Below, in pieces: positions 25,928 through 32,441 of a DNA stretch of 45,467 nucleotides; the stretch's first letter is position 1; every line of letters starts with the position of its first letter. The DNA lies in IMG/VR virus record IMGVR_UViG_3300048606_000041, positions 1 through 45,467 of that record. One strand, given 5' to 3'. The translations under genes and the position numbers were made by a program. The stretch comes from a virus (Duplodnaviria > Caudoviricetes). Under the pieces are notes generated by a model. It did no database searches, was not told the DNA's origin, and saw only the letters and a program-made list of their open reading frames with translations.

Positions 25928-28149
25928 CAGCCCTGCTGTGGGGGCGCTTGCGGCGGGGCGCCCTGTGGGGGTTTAGCCGGCCCCTTGCCGCCCGGAGGTG
26001 CTCCACCCGGGGGAGCCGCGCCAGGGGGCGGGGGAGCGCCAGGCGGGGGCATCGGCGGGGAGGTGGGTACACCAAACATCTCGGGAGCGGGCGGGGGAGC
26101 GCCGAGCGTCGCCACCAGGTCGTAGCGGTTGCGCGCTTCTAGGCTCTTGCTGATGACAGAGTGCTTGAACGCGAAGTTGCCAGCCAACTCCGGAACGGCC
26201 TGGGGCAACTGCACTAGGGCGTCGGCTTCCGCCACTCTCTGAGAAGTGCTCGTGAACTTCAGGTCGGCACTGATTTCAACGTCGTACGGACGGTCGTACA
26301 TGTCTCGACCAACTGAGAAGTTTTGGCGTCCCATTTCACCAAGAGATGGGTCGTGGTTGTTGACGCTGAAGAACTCCACGTCTTCGAGAAAGATAGCGTT
26401 GAGTGCGGCATTGTTCTCAAGAACTTGACCAAGGAAATCGGCATATTTGCCAGTAGGAACGCTGAGCATCTTGGTCGCTTGTTCAATACGCGCTGATAAC
26501 CCTTGAGCTGTCTCTCCGCTCTTTCCACTCTCGCCACTCAGAACCTCCGGTGTGTTGCTGACGCTGTTGCCAAAGCGAGTGAACATCTCGACCAGGGTCA
26601 GCATCTGCGGGTTGGCCTGCCCGAAGTCGAGCGGCATCACGTCCTTACCAAGGTCGGTAGCGCCCTCCACCTTGTGAATACCGCCGGGCTTGAGTTGGAA
26701 GGTCGCTCCGCCAGGCATGCGCACGTCGCCCGTGGTCAGGAAGTTCTTGAAGTTCCCGAGCGTGCCCTGGTCGATGAACATGGACAAGGCGATGTTGGCT
26801 GCCCTATTCTGAGCGGCATGCATGCTACCCGTGCCGAGGCCCAAGATGCCCTGGATAGGCTCGATGTTGACGCCGTGCGCGAACATGCGGATTGGTTTGA
26901 ACTCTGGGTCGCGCGGCTTCGCGTTCGGGTCACCAGCCATCCAATCGGGCATCGGAGCCTCGGGAGGAGCCGGCATTTCGTCAACGGCACGGGCCATGAT
27001 GATTCCCTGGCTAGCCGCGTCGCTTCCCGGGTCCTGCTGATGCGCTAGCTCCAACGCGCTCTGCCTGGCCGCCTGTTGCTCCTGCTGGAACATCTGAATC
27101 TGCTGCTGCGCCGCCTGGTACGCCTGCAGTTGCTTGGTCTCGAACTCGAAGCGCCGCTTGTCGTACGGGTCGACGCGCTCGTGAATCGCCAGGTGCAACA
27201 CCGTGTGCGTCTGGTAGTCCACGACCACCTTGCAGTACCGGTCGCGCCCCTCGCCGCCAGAGGACGGAGGCAGGTTGAGCCAGCCTTCCCACTGAATCAG
27301 CTTGTACTGACCCTTCTGGTAAGCGGTCGAGTCGACGCCAATGGACTTGTCCACGGCCTCGCGTAGCTCCTGCGTGATGGTCGTGTCATCCCAGTCCGGC
27401 GGCAGGTTCTTGAGCGTGCATCCCACGTCCTCCCAGGTGCCGTCCATCTTGCGCAGCTCGTGCGGGTCCATGTAGATGATCTTCGCGACCCAGGAAACGT
27501 CCGAGTAGTCGGGCATCGTGGACACGTGCGTGTTGGCGCACACGAACTCGTTAGCCGTCAGAATCTCGTGTCGGTTGCTGCGCTGGTTGGGGTCCCAGTA
27601 GGAGTGACAGGTGACGTCCCCGAACAAGTCGAAGATGAGCAGGCCACGGTGTCCGAGTTGACGTTTGAAGTCCTTGATGCGCTTGCGAATCTGCCAGTTG
27701 CCATGGAGAGAGAGCAGCTTCGCCGTGTGCTCATCGTCTGGCCCGATGGGAGTAACCCCAAACACGTTCGTCCAGTTACCGAATAACTCGTAGTTCTGCC
27801 GGTACACCATGCGGATGGTGTTCTCCATGAGAATGGGCACGTGCGCGTTGCTCATGTTCTCGAACGGCGCTTGCTTCGGGTCGAGTGTGCCGGAGAACAG
27901 CTTCCAGATGTCCGCCATGCTGGTGCGGAACTTCTCCGTCGCGCTCCAGGCTGCGTCGAAGTCGTCGAGAGTCTTGCCGCTGATGCGCTTCAAAGAAGCC
28001 TTGCCCTCGGGGTGCTTCTTGAACTCGCTAACTAGGTTTGCGGCTTCCTCATCGTACTTGAATGCGGGCTCCGACGCAGTCTCCTGCCCTAGCGTAAAGA
28101 CGTCTTCGTCGGTGTACTTGTCGCCGTCGTCAGTGTTCTGTTCAGCCAT
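25927..28149 (-). CDS. Portal protein
   Basis: 740 aa after terminase; PFENMSNAHVP, GLG, ETAQG..ARIEQ motifs; Pro-rich tail. Confidence 0.85.
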   Translation of the reverse strand: MAEQNTDDGDKYTDEDVFTLGQETASEPAFKYDEEAANLVSEFKKHPEGKASLKRISGKTLDDFDAAWSATEKFRTSMADIWKLFSGTLDPKQAPFENMSNAHVPILMENTIRMVYRQNYELFGNWTNVFGVTPIGPDDEHTAKLLSLHGNWQIRKRIKDFKRQLGHRGLLIFDLFGDVTCHSYWDPNQRSNRHEILTANEFVCANTHVSTMPDYSDVSWVAKIIYMDPHELRKMDGTWEDVGCTLKNLPPDWDDTTITQELREAVDKSIGVDSTAYQKGQYKLIQWEGWLNLPPSSGGEGRDRYCKVVVDYQTHTVLHLAIHERVDPYDKRRFEFETKQLQAYQAAQQQIQMFQQEQQAARQSALELAHQQDPGSDAASQGIIMARAVDEMPAPPEAPMPDWMAGDPNAKPRDPEFKPIRMFAHGVNIEPIQGILGLGTGSMHAAQNRAANIALSMFIDQGTLGNFKNFLTTGDVRMPGGATFQLKPGGIHKVEGATDLGKDVMPLDFGQANPQMLTLVEMFTRFGNSVSNTPEVLSGESGKSGETAQGLSARIEQATKMLSVPTGKYADFLGQVLENNAALNAIFLEDVEFFSVNNHDPSLGEMGRQNFSVGRDMYDRPYDVEISADLKFTSTSQRVAEADALVQLPQAVPELAGNFAFKHSVISKSLEARNRYDLVATLGAPPPAPEMFGVPTSPPMPPPGAPPPPGAAPPGGAPPGGKGPAKPPQGAPPQAPPQQG

Positions 28150-28298
28150 TACTGCGCGCCTTTAGACAGCGCCGCTTCCTGGCGCTTGGTCTGCTCAAGT
28201 TGGACGGTGCAAACCATCGACCGGCTTATGCCGTAAACGTTTGCCAGAGTTTTTGTTGGGATGACCCCGCGGCTCCGGACGTAGACTCCCTTAGGCAT
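28149..28298 (-). pseudogene. Collapsed homing-endonuclease remnant (49 aa)
   Basis: MPKGVYVR N-terminus joined directly to HTH-like TLANVYGISRSMV; no nuclease core. Confidence 0.5.
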
Positions 28299-28299
28299 C

Positions 28300-30840
28300 C
28301 TAGCCTCCATAGCCGAAACTTGTGCCGGAAGCACGCGCAACCGGCTCTTCCTCGCGCTCTTCTAGGCTGAATGGGTGCATCTCCATGAGGATTGACCCTG
28401 CTCCCCTGCTCGCGCGCGCGCATGCGTAGGCGACGACGTCGAACCAATGGCGGAGGGGGCTTTTGTTGCACGGAACCGTCGAGTCGCCGTCATCTATGGG
28501 CAAAGCGGCAAACATCTCCCGAGTTTTCTTACAGTTGCTGAAAACCATGAGGCCAGGCTGCTTGTTCTGGTCATAGTCGCGCAATCTAGCCGTCACTCGC
28601 TCTGCGTTTCGCATCACGCTGGCCTTGTCCGCTGGCCGCCAGTTGACACCCTCCGCTGCGAAGTCCGCCGCTTTGCTTCTGCCAGCGTCGCCTCTCTCTT
28701 CCCATAGTTGCGTGTCAGCGACGTTACTCAGTAGACGGCTCCTCTTCTCGGCCTTGTCCCAGAACCCAAACTGGAGTTCTATGTCCTTAACGCGCTTGGC
28801 GCACTCGGTAGAGTTCATTAGACGGAATGAAAACTCATAGAACATGTACAAGTTGTCATCAGGGTCCAGCGCGAACCATCCGATGACACCCATCGACTTA
28901 TATCCCCAGTCGAGAGACCGGAACTTAGGCCAGTCGCGCGGGATTTTGAATGGCTCGATGACGTGCACCGTAGGATTCCAGTCGTCTTCGAAGAAGCCGC
29001 CTTCTTGCGCGTCCCAGTCGCCGTACAGGTAGCGAGCGCGCATGTGCGCCGGCTTACTCAGCAGCTTGAACTTGTACTGCTCGACGAACGTCTTGTCGGG
29101 GTTGTCGTCGAGTGTCGCCGGCAGGAACAACCTCGTCTTGTACTTGGTGACGCCCGTGGCAGGGTCGGTGACCTTGCGCTTCATGATGGTCCTGCCCTGT
29201 GGGCAAGGAGTCACGAACTCATCCTTGAGCCACCCGGGCGCGGGGTTGCTCATCAGGCGCGTTCGTAGCAGCAAGCCGAGCACCGGATCGGCGGAACGCA
29301 CGCGACCGTCGAGTTCCTCGAACTGCTTCTGCTCGAATTGGAACGACTCATCCAGGCCTAGCCAGGTCTGAATTGATATGCTTGCGTTCTCGGTGATATA
29401 GTGGTTTGCGCCTTCAACCGTGAGGTCGAATGTCTGAAACCACCCAGCGAACTCCAGATGCATCGAGCCCATACGGACGGCCTCTGTCAGAGGTCTCGAC
29501 TGCCCAGTATAGAAGTGACCGTAAGTCCTGGCCTCAGGATATGGGATACATCGTCGAGCGCTTCCCGGAGCATCCTGCTGCAAGGGGGCAGAACAGCATC
29601 GTGATGCAGCACCGTCTAGTGGCTGAGCAGCTTTTGGGTCGATACCTGACGGGCGCGGAGGTGGTCCACCATGAAGACCGGGTCCGCTGGAATAACGACC
29701 CATCGAACCTGTGGCTGTTCCGGAACCATGCGGAGCACATGCGTCATCACAAGAAAGGAGAGAAGCGATACCAGGCTGATCTCGCCGAAAGGCTCCGATG
29801 TCTGGCTCCGGCAAAGTCACTATCAGCGAAAGAAGTTGCGGCGCAGTTGGGCTGCTCGGTGAACACGATGAAGGCTCTTGCCAAGGAACACGATATCCAG
29901 TGGGTGAGTCGCGCCGAGTCAGGACTCTCCGAAGAGTCGGCTCGTGAAGCACTACAGGGACGGTCAACTCTGGAAGCTGCGTCAACTCTAGGTGTGAGCC
30001 ATCAGACCTTGAGAAGCCTGTTTCCGCATCTACTCTCGAAGCGCGCCTCACCTGACTTTCTCGACGCCCATCGAGAAGAGATTCGTAGTCTTGCCACACG
30101 GGAGCGAAACGCGGAGTTGGCGGATCGCTTTGGCTGCCACCCGATGACTCTGAACAAGGCGATTGCTCGCTGGTCCAGTGAAGAACCGGATGCGTGGTTG
30201 GGTGTAATTGCGTTCCGACGGTCTCGCCTAGGTATGAAGTGGTCGCGCGTACGCAAGCCTTGATGCCAGTATCCCACGTTGCCTCGACCTCTCGCGGACC
30301 CTCCAGGGTCATCACGAATTCCCCAGTCGATATCTCCTGAATGGCCTTCAGGGACCCGTCCCCCATGACAACGCGCGTGCCAAAAGCTGAGCAATATTGT
30401 TTACTTAGGTAGTCCTCGTGGCTGTTGGCCTCGCGACAGTGCCCGAAGGTGTAGACGTAGCCGCTGCTGAACGTCCATCGGTGGTCCTCCTTGGAGTAGA
30501 CTGCGCCGGGGTCGAACTTCTTGAACATGCGCCCCGAGCGGTCGATGGTCTCCTTGATTTGAGGCATCGTCCGGCGCATGTGCAGCGCGTGGCCTTCGGA
30601 TTCCCCCGGTCGGATGGGGTACTTCCGGCAGAGGTCTTTGAGCCAATCGGGGAAGCCTTCCGGGATGTCCTGGGTCATCCTGGCGTGTTCCACTACCGCC
30701 TGGGTGACTAGCGCATCAAAAAGCAGGGCTAAACTCTTGCCGGGGCCGGCGCTTCCCCCGCCCAGTACCTCATCGGCGGTCGAATTGTGAAATTCTTTCG
30801 CCCATGGGGAAGGGGTGTAGATGGTCCTGTCGAAGTTCAG
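28300..30840 (-). CDS. terL: Terminase large subunit, intein-containing, probable CTG start
   Basis: Walker A GGSAGPGKS (upstream of the ORF-track start), Walker B TWLGLDE, SNP motif, nuclease domain SLDWG...ADT...HWFD. Confidence 0.93.
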   Translation of the reverse strand: MNFDRTIYTPSPWAKEFHNSTADEVLGGGSAGPGKSLALLFDALVTQAVVEHARMTQDIPEGFPDWLKDLCRKYPIRPGESEGHALHMRRTMPQIKETIDRSGRMFKKFDPGAVYSKEDHRWTFSSGYVYTFGHCREANSHEDYLSKQYCSAFGTRVVMGDGSLKAIQEISTGEFVMTLEGPREVEATWDTGIKACVRATTSYLGETVGTQLHPTTHPVLHWTSEQSPCSESSGGSQSDPPTPRFAPVWQDYESLLDGRRESQVRRASRVDAETGFSRSDGSHLELTQLPELTVPVVLHEPTLRRVLTRRDSPTGYRVPWQEPSSCSPSSPTAPQLLSLIVTLPEPDIGAFRRDQPGIASLLSCDDACAPHGSGTATGSMGRYSSGPGLHGGPPPRPSGIDPKAAQPLDGAASRCCSAPLQQDAPGSARRCIPYPEARTYGHFYTGQSRPLTEAVRMGSMHLEFAGWFQTFDLTVEGANHYITENASISIQTWLGLDESFQFEQKQFEELDGRVRSADPVLGLLLRTRLMSNPAPGWLKDEFVTPCPQGRTIMKRKVTDPATGVTKYKTRLFLPATLDDNPDKTFVEQYKFKLLSKPAHMRARYLYGDWDAQEGGFFEDDWNPTVHVIEPFKIPRDWPKFRSLDWGYKSMGVIGWFALDPDDNLYMFYEFSFRLMNSTECAKRVKDIELQFGFWDKAEKRSRLLSNVADTQLWEERGDAGRSKAADFAAEGVNWRPADKASVMRNAERVTARLRDYDQNKQPGLMVFSNCKKTREMFAALPIDDGDSTVPCNKSPLRHWFDVVAYACARASRGAGSILMEMHPFSLEEREEEPVARASGTSFGYGG
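29373..29402 (+). promoter_or_regulatory. Sigma70-like promoter TTGATA-18-TATAGT (extended -10) for the antisense HNH gene
   Basis: TTGATA 29373-29378, TG 29394-29395, TATAGT 29397-29402; GAGGT 29422-29426 before ATG 29430. Confidence 0.65.
29430..30263 (+). CDS. HNH homing endonuclease with three C-terminal HTH repeats, nested antisense inside the intein
   Basis: GYIVERFPEHP...MQHRLVAEQLLGRYL...EVVHHEDRVRWNNDPSNL (HNH); HTHs AKEVAAQLGCSVNT, TLEAASTLGVSHQT, NAELADRFGCHPMT. Confidence 0.88.
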   Translation: MSETTQRTPDASSPYGRPLSEVSTAQYRSDRKSWPQDMGYIVERFPEHPAARGQNSIVMQHRLVAEQLLGRYLTGAEVVHHEDRVRWNNDPSNLWLFRNHAEHMRHHKKGEKRYQADLAERLRCLAPAKSLSAKEVAAQLGCSVNTMKALAKEHDIQWVSRAESGLSEESAREALQGRSTLEAASTLGVSHQTLRSLFPHLLSKRASPDFLDAHREEIRSLATRERNAELADRFGCHPMTLNKAIARWSSEEPDAWLGVIAFRRSRLGMKWSRVRKP

Positions 30841-31163
30841 GCGCGACTCGACAGGTGCTTGACTATAACACGAACCAACTGTGGGTCATGCGGCTCATCG
30901 ATGGTACGAACTGGCTCCCAGTACCGGCGCGGCTCATGCAGGTCGATGGCGCGCAGGGCTCGGTCCGCCACGAGCGCCACCTCCAGCATCTCCTCCTGGC
31001 GGAGCCGGCTGACGAAGGGATTGGCAGGCATCCACTTCTGGCTCTTGGCGGACACCAGGCGCTCGCCGCGGTCCACGTACACCACGCGCAGTTCGCCGCC
31101 GATGTCTTCGACGACACCCGACATGCCATCGTCCTGGCGCAGCATACGGTCACCCAGCTTCAT
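30837..31163 (-). CDS. Hypothetical protein upstream of terL
   Basis: ATGA overlap upstream, CTGA overlap with terL. Confidence 0.7.
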   Translation of the reverse strand: MKLGDRMLRQDDGMSGVVEDIGGELRVVYVDRGERLVSAKSQKWMPANPFVSRLRQEEMLEVALVADRALRAIDLHEPRRYWEPVRTIDEPHDPQLVRVIVKHLSSRA

Positions 31164-31591
31164 TCGGACTCCACCTCTACCACCGGGTAAGTCGAGGGCC
31201 CAGGGAACGCCGCGGAGGTCGGCGGGGGCAACTCGATCTTCACGTTCAGGTTGTTCTGAGTGAGAGTCGCCTTATTGAACCCTCGCGCTCTCGATATCCC
31301 AGTGTGGGCCTTCTGGGCAAGGGCTACTCCCGCAGGCGCCATGTTGGATGGCTTCCACATGGACTTGGCGAGCTGGAGCTTCCTGTTCGCCGCCTCTGCC
31401 CCGAGTTCCGACACCCACTCGGCGGGCGGCTCGGCGTCAAACTCGCCAATCTGGCCGAAAGCCAGGGCATCCAGCAGAATCTCGCTCGCTCGCTCGAAAA
31501 CCCGGTCCTCTATCTCCTGAAATCGCTCGATACGCTCCTCTTTGCGCTTGTCGCTCAGAAGGTCTCGTTCGAGAGCCTTATCGAGTATCAT
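31160..31591 (-). CDS. Possible terminase small subunit
   Basis: 143 aa, helical, with C-terminal QNNLNVKI strand; two genes upstream of terL. Confidence 0.45.
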   Translation of the reverse strand: MILDKALERDLLSDKRKEERIERFQEIEDRVFERASEILLDALAFGQIGEFDAEPPAEWVSELGAEAANRKLQLAKSMWKPSNMAPAGVALAQKAHTGISRARGFNKATLTQNNLNVKIELPPPTSAAFPGPSTYPVVEVESE

Positions 31592-32073
31592 CGCAGCGTC
31601 TCTAGTTGGAACCCATCGCCCACGTCAGCCACCAATGTGGATGCATAGAGTATGGCCTGCTTGGCCGTGTCACCATCTACGCGCCCAGTGGCGTGCTTCG
31701 CAGCAAGGTACCCAAGCGCCACCTGGTATCCGCTTCCTATGGCCCAGAATAGCTGTTCTTTCGCCAGGTCGACTAGTGCGCCTCCGCTAGTCACTTCAAT
31801 CAGCCGGTCTGCTGTCAGGACTAGAGCGTGCCCGCCCGAGTTTGGGGCCCGGAAGATGGCCCTGATGGACTCCAACGCCTTGTTTGTCGTCTTGGCTTTG
31901 GGCAATACCTCAGAGATACGGTCTATGAGTAGGTGATCGCCCGCTGCCGCCACCAGAATCCCCTGCCCCTTATGGACCTTGCTTACCTGGTAAGGGCCCA
32001 GAAGTCCGCCGGTGAAGGTAGTGCGGCGGTCCGCCGCCATCCAGCCGTCTCTATGAGCAATGATGCAAGTCAC
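31588..32073 (-). CDS. Ntn-hydrolase (HslV / proteasome beta-like) peptidase
   Basis: GTG start gives (M)TCIIA...MAADRR with N-terminal Thr; K, AAGD and AIGSG motifs; AGGGAG RBS. Confidence 0.8.
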   Translation of the reverse strand: MTCIIAHRDGWMAADRRTTFTGGLLGPYQVSKVHKGQGILVAAAGDHLLIDRISEVLPKAKTTNKALESIRAIFRAPNSGGHALVLTADRLIEVTSGGALVDLAKEQLFWAIGSGYQVALGYLAAKHATGRVDGDTAKQAILYASTLVADVGDGFQLETLR

Positions 32074-32102
32074 AGTCTCTCCCTGGGGTATGCTGAAGCA
32101 GT

Positions 32103-32441
32103 ATGCCACAGCGAACGGCCCACCGGTGGCGATTTTACGAACAGAAGCCCCCCAAGGACGCGCACAAGGAGCGGTTGCCGCTACCGGAACTAGCTAGATT
32201 CCTTGGGGATAGGCGGAGTGAGGCGAGGAAGTACGCAAAGAGCAGAGGACTCATCCACCACAGCGTGATCCGGACGCCCAAGGGTACCCGGAGGAGCCTG
32301 TACTGGGTCACGCCCTGGGGAGCCATGCAGGTCATCCTACACGTCAGGGCGCTACAGGGGGGCAAGTTCCTGGACAGCCTGGAGCGGGAGCCTAGGAGAC
32401 TATCGGGTTGTCCTCCCCCTCATCCTCGACACAGCACGTGA
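32103..32441 (+). CDS. Basic hypothetical protein, possible DNA-binding
   Basis: LPELARFLG...ARKYAKSRGL HTH-like segment; start uncertain. Confidence 0.4.
   Translation: MPQRTAHRWRFYEQKPPKDAHKERLPLPELARFLGDRRSEARKYAKSRGLIHHSVIRTPKGTRRSLYWVTPWGAMQVILHVRALQGGKFLDSLEREPRRLSGCPPPHPRHST

Follow-up and report, generated by a model that had tools for sequence, protein, structure and literature searches.

An intein in a viral terL gene with an antisense HNH gene nested inside it, predicted to splice and to home

What interrupts the terminase gene terL in the viral genome IMGVR_UViG_3300048606_000041 (Caudoviricetes; estimated to be ~95% complete)? The window analysed here is the whole record of 45,467 nucleotides. 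On its minus strand the terL precursor (28300..30840) contains a class-1 type intein of 342 residues (29368..30393), and the opposite strand of the same DNA carries a second gene (29430..30263, plus strand; 277 aa and a stop). This gene encodes a protein with an I-HmuI-like N-terminal segment, an HNH core and three helix-turn-helix (HTH) regions, and it lies opposite intein residues 44-321. We consider it highly probable that the locus comprises an in-frame terL intein, predicted to splice itself out, and a separate, intact antisense HNH gene whose product would drive homing into empty terL alleles. The element as a whole is very likely mobile and under selection.

The borders of the intein are fixed by comparison with relatives that lack it. 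A search with the C-extein (28300..29367, minus strand), which begins at Thr+1 and contains Walker B and the nuclease domain, returned four relatives (L081-L084) that are 69-82% identical; all four are without the insert and read SKQY followed by T with no break. The N-extein (30394..30840, minus strand) contains Walker A, ends in SKQY immediately ahead of Walker B, and is 94% identical to the empty allele L081. Both exteins match PHROG terminase profiles, the N-extein phrog_979 with E 1.1e-14. In a terL tree the source genome is nested among the four successive empty relatives; resolution is poor in the deep Hint and extein trees, and we base no claim of transfer on them. The precursor would be 846 aa long if translation begins at a CTG (30840-30838). 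This candidate start overlaps the TGA of the upstream ORF, and the same position is TTG in L081 and ATG in L082. Walker A precedes the first GTG of the open frame, and the probable CTG start (30837-30840, minus strand), with its TTG and ATG counterparts, explains why ORF finders drop it.

The terL frame is open across the whole insertion, from Cys1 to a terminal ISIQ that is followed by Thr. In the AlphaFold2 (AF2) model of the intein, confidence is high at residues 1-70, 101-110, 141-160 and 291-342 and low at ~170-285 (pLDDT ~40-55). Among solved inteins the model aligns with gp41-1 (Z 15.1, rmsd 1.8, 124 residues aligned) and NpuDnaB (Z 15.0). Its match to the N-half of the split Npu DnaE intein takes in residues 1-152 (Z 6.7), and the N-terminal splicing region therefore likely reaches residue 152; from these alignment ranges we infer that residues 143-152 are the last N-terminal Hint strand. 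Cys1, His68 (block B) and Asp323 (block F, which also contains His331) are invariant in 36 aligned inteins. Together with an in-frame insertion absent from homologues, a Hint fold, and a terminal Gln followed by Thr+1, these residues describe a class 1 intein. A Pfam search of the intein frame yielded sub-threshold Hint matches only and no nuclease domain, so that the endonuclease is not in the intein's own frame as in canonical bifunctional inteins, and the single open frame differs from the two ORFs of a split intein.

We therefore predict from the model that the intein splices itself out of the terL precursor. Several features weigh against this. The penultimate His, a usual though non-obligatory helper, is replaced by Ile341 and is present in only two of 38 representatives, both of them Walker A inteins; a Pro three residues ahead of the block B His and the terminal Gln are non-standard; and the Pfam and NCBIfam intein matches fall under the cut-off. 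Moreover, the public gene call begins a C-terminal terL fragment inside the intein. One could thus imagine that the insertion is not spliced, that TerL is made in two parts or tolerates a loop, as has been proposed for the ShiLan element of a phage methylase gene, and that the HNH gene is a mere parasite. We judge this very unlikely. Inteins that end in Gln, and inteins without the penultimate His, do splice (PMC4031507). The Hint fold is complete, its catalytic residues are invariant, and the insertion site lies just before Walker B. In a sister clade that served as our test set for selection (24 distinct inteins of 345 aa, compared as 18 nearest pairs) the intein-frame pN/pS is 0.17 in the N-terminal splicing part ahead of the overlap, and the frame is open in all 69 loci that share the layout.

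The plus-strand ORF matches HNH_3 above the cut-off (E 1.5e-7), and HTH models match its product at residues ~122-156, 171-197 and 215-255. The HNH core (residues 60-107; 29607..29750, plus strand) faces the middle of the intein model, where confidence is low, and its residues H61, H80, H81, N89, N93, H103 and H107 do not vary among 41 aligned sequences. For the whole protein, AF2 gives a mean pLDDT of 89. Its sole sequence match in the PDB is I-HmuI (E 0.009), which is also its top fold match (Z 6.8, rmsd 3.6, residues 23-111), and both matches are weak; Foldseek returned nothing at E <= 0.001, the match of the N-terminal module having E 0.24. By homology with I-HmuI, the protein likely nicks intein-less terL alleles near the insertion site.

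How likely is it that two such frames remain open by chance? Codon position 1 of each frame pairs with position 1 of the other, and 2 with 3. In 12 genes of the source genome this is the stop-richest antisense register, with 281 stops in 6888 codons as against 97 in the in-register frame. When the HNH gene was re-coded synonymously, the intein frame stayed open in 0.01-0.07% of trials (20,000 per model), and none of 20,000 codon-order shuffles kept it open; we put the probability that chance leaves both frames open at ~0.0007. The register also leaves a trace in the protein: Phe followed by Ile, Met, Thr, Asn or Lys forces a stop in the intein frame. The pair never occurs after the 231 Phe residues of 40 homologues known only as proteins (35 expected), and these homologues are therefore likely nested too; in free HNHs it occurs at 8 of 76 Phe residues (17 expected). 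An earlier note on this DNA, made from the letters alone, had described the 342-aa intein with its splicing blocks and without a nuclease of its own, the HNH and three-HTH gene wholly within it, and the register of the two frames, and it had proposed a bidirectionally coded selfish element. The observations are borne out, and the proposal is supported by the exact empty alleles, the Hint fold, purifying selection on the HNH gene and a homing-type distribution in relatives. Of the checks that the note had suggested, the codon shuffle and the HNH_3 search of the plus frame gave the expected answers, while Hint profiles on the minus frame stayed below the cut-off; the stops in homologues that would have spoken against it occur in none of the 69 loci. 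The source genome is GC-rich and has many long shadow ORFs, and the plus-strand ORF might be supposed to be one more shadow, cast by a conserved or GC-rich intein frame. We rate the chance of this as next to nil: the reading is refuted by the HNH_3 match, the confident model, purifying selection in the HNH frame and a probability of below 0.001 that the frames stay open.

Which of the two frames does selection see? In the middle of the sister-clade inteins pN/pS is 0.15-0.30 (up to 0.31) in the HNH frame and 1.9-2.7 (1.5-3.7 as the wider range) in the intein frame, and selection is back on the intein frame in blocks F and G. This switch of strands indicates that the intein's middle serves as a spacer from which stops are excluded; as judged from these sequence comparisons, amino-acid selection there acts on the HNH frame only and the intein frame is just kept open. 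In two places the proteins appear to share constrained nucleotides. The first is 29938..29967, where intein residues 143-152 (VPVxLH) lie opposite the HNH helix 171-180 (VREALxGR). Wobble positions are nearly fixed at HNH 172-178 and intein 145-149 in 27 three-HTH members (p ~0.001 and 0.002, among related sequences), whereas the median wobble value elsewhere in the HNH frame is 0.44. Mini-inteins keep P-V-x-L-H with altered codons; in distant members it is ALxGR that persists, and the residues of the intein drift. Taken as natural controls, the two groups speak for protein constraint on both strands and against a DNA motif. The second is the block B region (intein residues 44-75; 30169..30263, both strands), which is overlapped by the C-terminal tail of the HNH protein; here the intein-frame pS is 0.15, down from 0.38, and the wobble test is borderline (p 0.06). 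Thus, of the earlier suggestion that selection acts on both frames across 278 doubly open codons, the openness stands, but amino-acid constraint in both frames appears to be confined to short stretches.

The layout is a family trait. Besides itself, the HNH protein has 48 homologues in the protein database, 40 of them 42-63% identical over most of the length; a protein search with the intein found only the source genome's own shortened gene call, and single-protein locus scans with either query returned no locus. A scan with an HNH alignment yielded 80 viral loci. In 69 of these a long open opposite frame reads as terL plus intein, always in the same relative register, and the other 11 (L069-L079) are weak core-only matches that lack the layout and are apparently free-standing. 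Conversely, of 80 loci found with the intein N-terminus, 66 belong to the clade: 63 have the antisense gene (two of them with an internal deletion), three are mini-inteins (184 aa, two distinct sequences), and none has a nuclease in frame. Among 41 HNH loci from metagenomes, all six full-length matches show the layout; the other 35 are core-only, a few lying in other antisense inteins. No full-length family member was found among 15 GTDB genome matches or in cultured phages, nor was any RNA data set listed as containing the element.

Within the family the element varies in position, extent and terminal residue. In L051, L052, L054, L059, L060, L066 and L080 the family intein sits four residues later, directly ahead of the Walker B FDE/MDE, a shift of the insertion site. 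In L009 and L041 the terL frame is much longer past the intein (~640 aa), which suggests a second insertion. Gln replaces the terminal Asn in the clade of the source intein together with L001-L005, L166 and L167, and again in the mini-inteins L128, L144 and L145, which are placed elsewhere in the Hint tree. A decay series (L061, L105, L107, L128, L144, L145) has the nuclease partly or wholly deleted in frame and keeps the PVxLH-type strand and an HxY hairpin. Where the loop that follows block B is absent, the nuclease is shorter and ends ahead of that block, which suggests that the overlap may have grown stepwise. Finally, L062, L067, L189, L193, L196 and L204 are other terL inteins, ending in His-Asn, whose antisense genes have the HTH before the HNH and lie in the same relative frame; all are inserted at Walker A except L204, which is in the nuclease half of terL, and L062 and L067, whose nucleases differ in architecture, are counted among the 69. 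These inteins possibly represent independent origins of the layout.

How could the nested gene be expressed? The earlier note had supposed that its early-strand direction would allow expression during replication. Direction alone, however, does not bring expression about: the structural genes are on the minus strand, and the plus-strand primase, helicase and exonuclease genes (38.8-43.6 kb) lie 8-14 kb downstream and point away, so that a promoter inside the intein would be needed. We find a candidate at 29373..29402 (plus strand; TTGATA, 18 bp, TG-n-TATAGT), which scores higher as a sigma-70 site than any other on either strand of the source genome (10/12 plus TG), with boxes spelled by the intein codons His331-Tyr332-Ile333 and, in block G, Ile339-Ser340-Ile341. 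Over 38 representatives the summed match is 354, as against 318-327 (sd 5-6) after synonymous re-coding; 16 of the 38 reach 10/12 where 6-8 are expected, and three have a perfect TTGACA-16-TATAAT, one of them in a terL with GC3 0.89. On the other side, the block G amino acids alone yield matches of ~8-9/12, the test with a fixed -10 is marginal under uniform codon use (191 vs 179.5 +/- 4.4, maximum 193), and A/T-rich third positions reach past the promoter boxes. We regard the promoter evidence as moderate, since the amino acids predispose to a match, 22 of the 38 stay below 10 and the sequences are related.

The predicted start signals, an SD-like (Shine-Dalgarno) GAGG and the ATG (29422..29432, plus strand), are written by the block F codons T-F-D-L. 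The ATG requires the rare Thr codon ACA, which is kept in 10 of the 11 clade members scored and accounts for 20 of 244 extein Thr codons; a point against is that the SD is just 4 nt from the ATG. We favour the ATG at 29430 over Met38, the choice of gene callers, because the I-HmuI fold match begins at residue 23. RNA structure at the start is nothing special (z 0.74), and no plus-strand terminator was found between the HNH stop and 31000. A separate promoter-like site (9/12 with TG; 30889-30862, minus strand) lies just upstream of terL and faces the predicted HNH promoter 1.5 kb off; the matching stretch of L081, read by eye, lacks the -10 hexamer. Further upstream of the terminase module is a gene for an HslV-family peptidase (31588-32109, minus strand; phrog_1040, E 4.8e-21).

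Has the element moved? Of 49 sister-clade pairs whose inteins are at least 95% identical, 36 have distal C-exteins less than 85% identical. For example, the L029 and L036 inteins are 98.2% identical between exteins that are 75-77% identical; among four-fold sites, 3 of 122 differ in the HNH frame, whereas 28 of 36 and 41 of 74 do so in the exteins. The 80 sister-clade terL relatives retained out of 263 comprise 60 empty alleles, four that stop at a variant empty site, 15 with the intein and one unclassified; 12 of the 15 carriers have a complete antisense HNH gene, and the other three are shorter. The carriers are scattered over the terL tree, and some of their empty neighbours are as much as 99.6% identical. 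Recent homing by a presumably active nuclease would be expected to leave just such a trace. For the source copy, the corresponding observation is its nesting among empty alleles. Against L081 no co-conversion tract was found: identity is 92-96% just upstream of the site and 82-99% just downstream, and falls only from ~450 nt downstream. Within terL, identity to L081 is 63-82% over the 3' half (~28050-28920) and 70-84% around the 5' end (30660-30930), with flanking genes at 91-100%, a mosaic that points to recombination within the gene. Two freshwater runs, chosen by the source stretch and of low depth, yielded three pieces of 151 nt that differ from the intein's interior at 0-2 positions, and there was one contig with an empty-type junction; we take all this as a weak hint.

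Against an active source copy it must be said that the HNH protein matches I-HmuI weakly in sequence and fold, that the strongest pN/pS and homing data come from a sister clade whose inteins are ~25% identical to the source intein, that the HNH core of the source genome is the longest branch in its clade (0.71), and that position 56 is Ser where 26 of 27 members have Gly. The last two points mean that this copy may be weakened. In the extreme the intein would still splice while the HNH gene is a decaying relic that no longer homes, as the members with partly deleted nucleases (L061, L105/L107) and the mini-inteins illustrate. We think this unlikely, since the ORF is full-length, has all the invariant residues and retains its ATG, its SD and the genome's best sigma-70 match, and its place among four empty alleles is suggestive of a recent gain. 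Alternatively, the antisense HNH protein might serve the phage, for example as a terminase cofactor (of the HK97 gp74 type) or a late-gene regulator, with the intein only its shelter. The element is always in terL, the protein has three HTHs, and its transcript would run antisense to terL towards a region in which we found no terminator. At least 60 of the 80 sister-clade relatives and all four close ones do without the element, however, and its recent horizontal spread fits a selfish element; we hold a phage-serving role to be highly improbable.

We propose the following cycle for the self-splicing intein and its homing HNH gene. TerL would be translated through the insertion, the low-information middle of which is kept stop-free, and the Hint domain would splice as class 1 inteins do, using Cys1, cyclisation of the terminal Gln, and Thr+1. 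Transcription by host RNA polymerase would begin at the sigma-70-type promoter that the block G codons spell, and translation of the HNH protein at the block F ATG, probably ahead of late terL expression. The protein would bind the empty site through its N-terminal module and HTHs and nick it as I-HmuI does, and recombinational repair during co-infection would copy the intein. A more far-reaching reading, which to us is evenly balanced, is that of a two-strand mobile unit. Its proteins would be interleaved on the DNA, with HTHs 2 and 3 running through Hint loops, one Hint strand and one nuclease helix sharing nucleotides, and catalytic-block codons doubling as promoter, ribosome site and start codon; the overlap would have grown stepwise, from shorter nucleases ending before block B to three-HTH forms reading through it, and part of the nuclease would be locked in since the intein needs the same DNA.

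Layouts of this kind have been described before. Gosselin, Arsenault and Gogarten describe antisense LAGLIDADG and antisense Vsr-like endonuclease ORFs in inteins, many in terL, as well as in-frame HNH and frame-3 EndoVII inteins, and cite earlier antisense examples, among them Synechocystis dnaX and a SpoVR-like gene of Chloroflexus, with antisense LAGLIDADG ORFs from 1998 (bioRxiv 10.1101/2025.01.02.630785); related literature includes PMC2677866. Our element shares with theirs a contiguous intein, an open host frame, an opposite-strand nuclease ORF, often terL as host, and a patchy, homing-like spread. It differs in that the nuclease is an HNH_3 protein with HTHs and neither LAGLIDADG nor Vsr-like, HNH being listed there, in the sections available, only in frame. 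In that survey the second ORF typically lies outside the splicing domain, whereas here the overlap takes in residues 44-321 and with them block B and what is probably the last N-terminal strand, predicted promoter and start signals lie in splicing blocks (the available sections of the survey mention none), and there is a clade with terminal Gln. An antisense HNH intein was not found in the literature searched, most subscription papers being outside its reach, and survey supplements may hold more cases.

Other known systems share parts of this arrangement. Canonical bifunctional inteins have the Hint domain, the homing life cycle and insertion beside ATPase motifs; here the nuclease is outside the intein polypeptide and needs its own transcript. 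The I-HmuI family (PDB 1u3e; HNH_3) shares the HNH core and a C-terminal HTH, with a weak alignment that also takes in the N-terminal segment (residues 23-111 to 1-104), and differs in being intron-encoded in the sense direction, whereas ours is antisense in an intein with three HTHs and a His-rich active site. I-HmuI itself carries one HTH. Members of its family are likely nickases (PMC2988022). Fractured genes with split inteins likewise have a separate nuclease gene with its own control signals in the intein locus, but there intein and host are split, the nuclease is GIY-YIG or Vsr-like and overlaps are 6-69 bp, whereas here one open frame has an 834-bp overlap. The ShiLan element (PMC11855218) also hides an HNH ORF over an open host frame and shows a homing pattern; no splicing domain was detected in it, and its HNH is reported to be out of frame rather than nested antisense, whereas a Hint fold is present here.

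Finally, an architecture that has been called extremely rare (bioRxiv 10.1101/2025.01.02.630785) turns out to be the rule in a widespread intein family of uncultured phages that is actively on the move; it is concealed by gene callers that keep the nuclease and break terL. The natural series of full, partly deleted, mini and empty alleles is a test bed for the origin and persistence of long antisense overlaps. It also bears on how an antisense homing gene may be expressed inside a late operon and on whether overlap protects a homing nuclease from decay, and the Gln-ending clade adds splicing variants.

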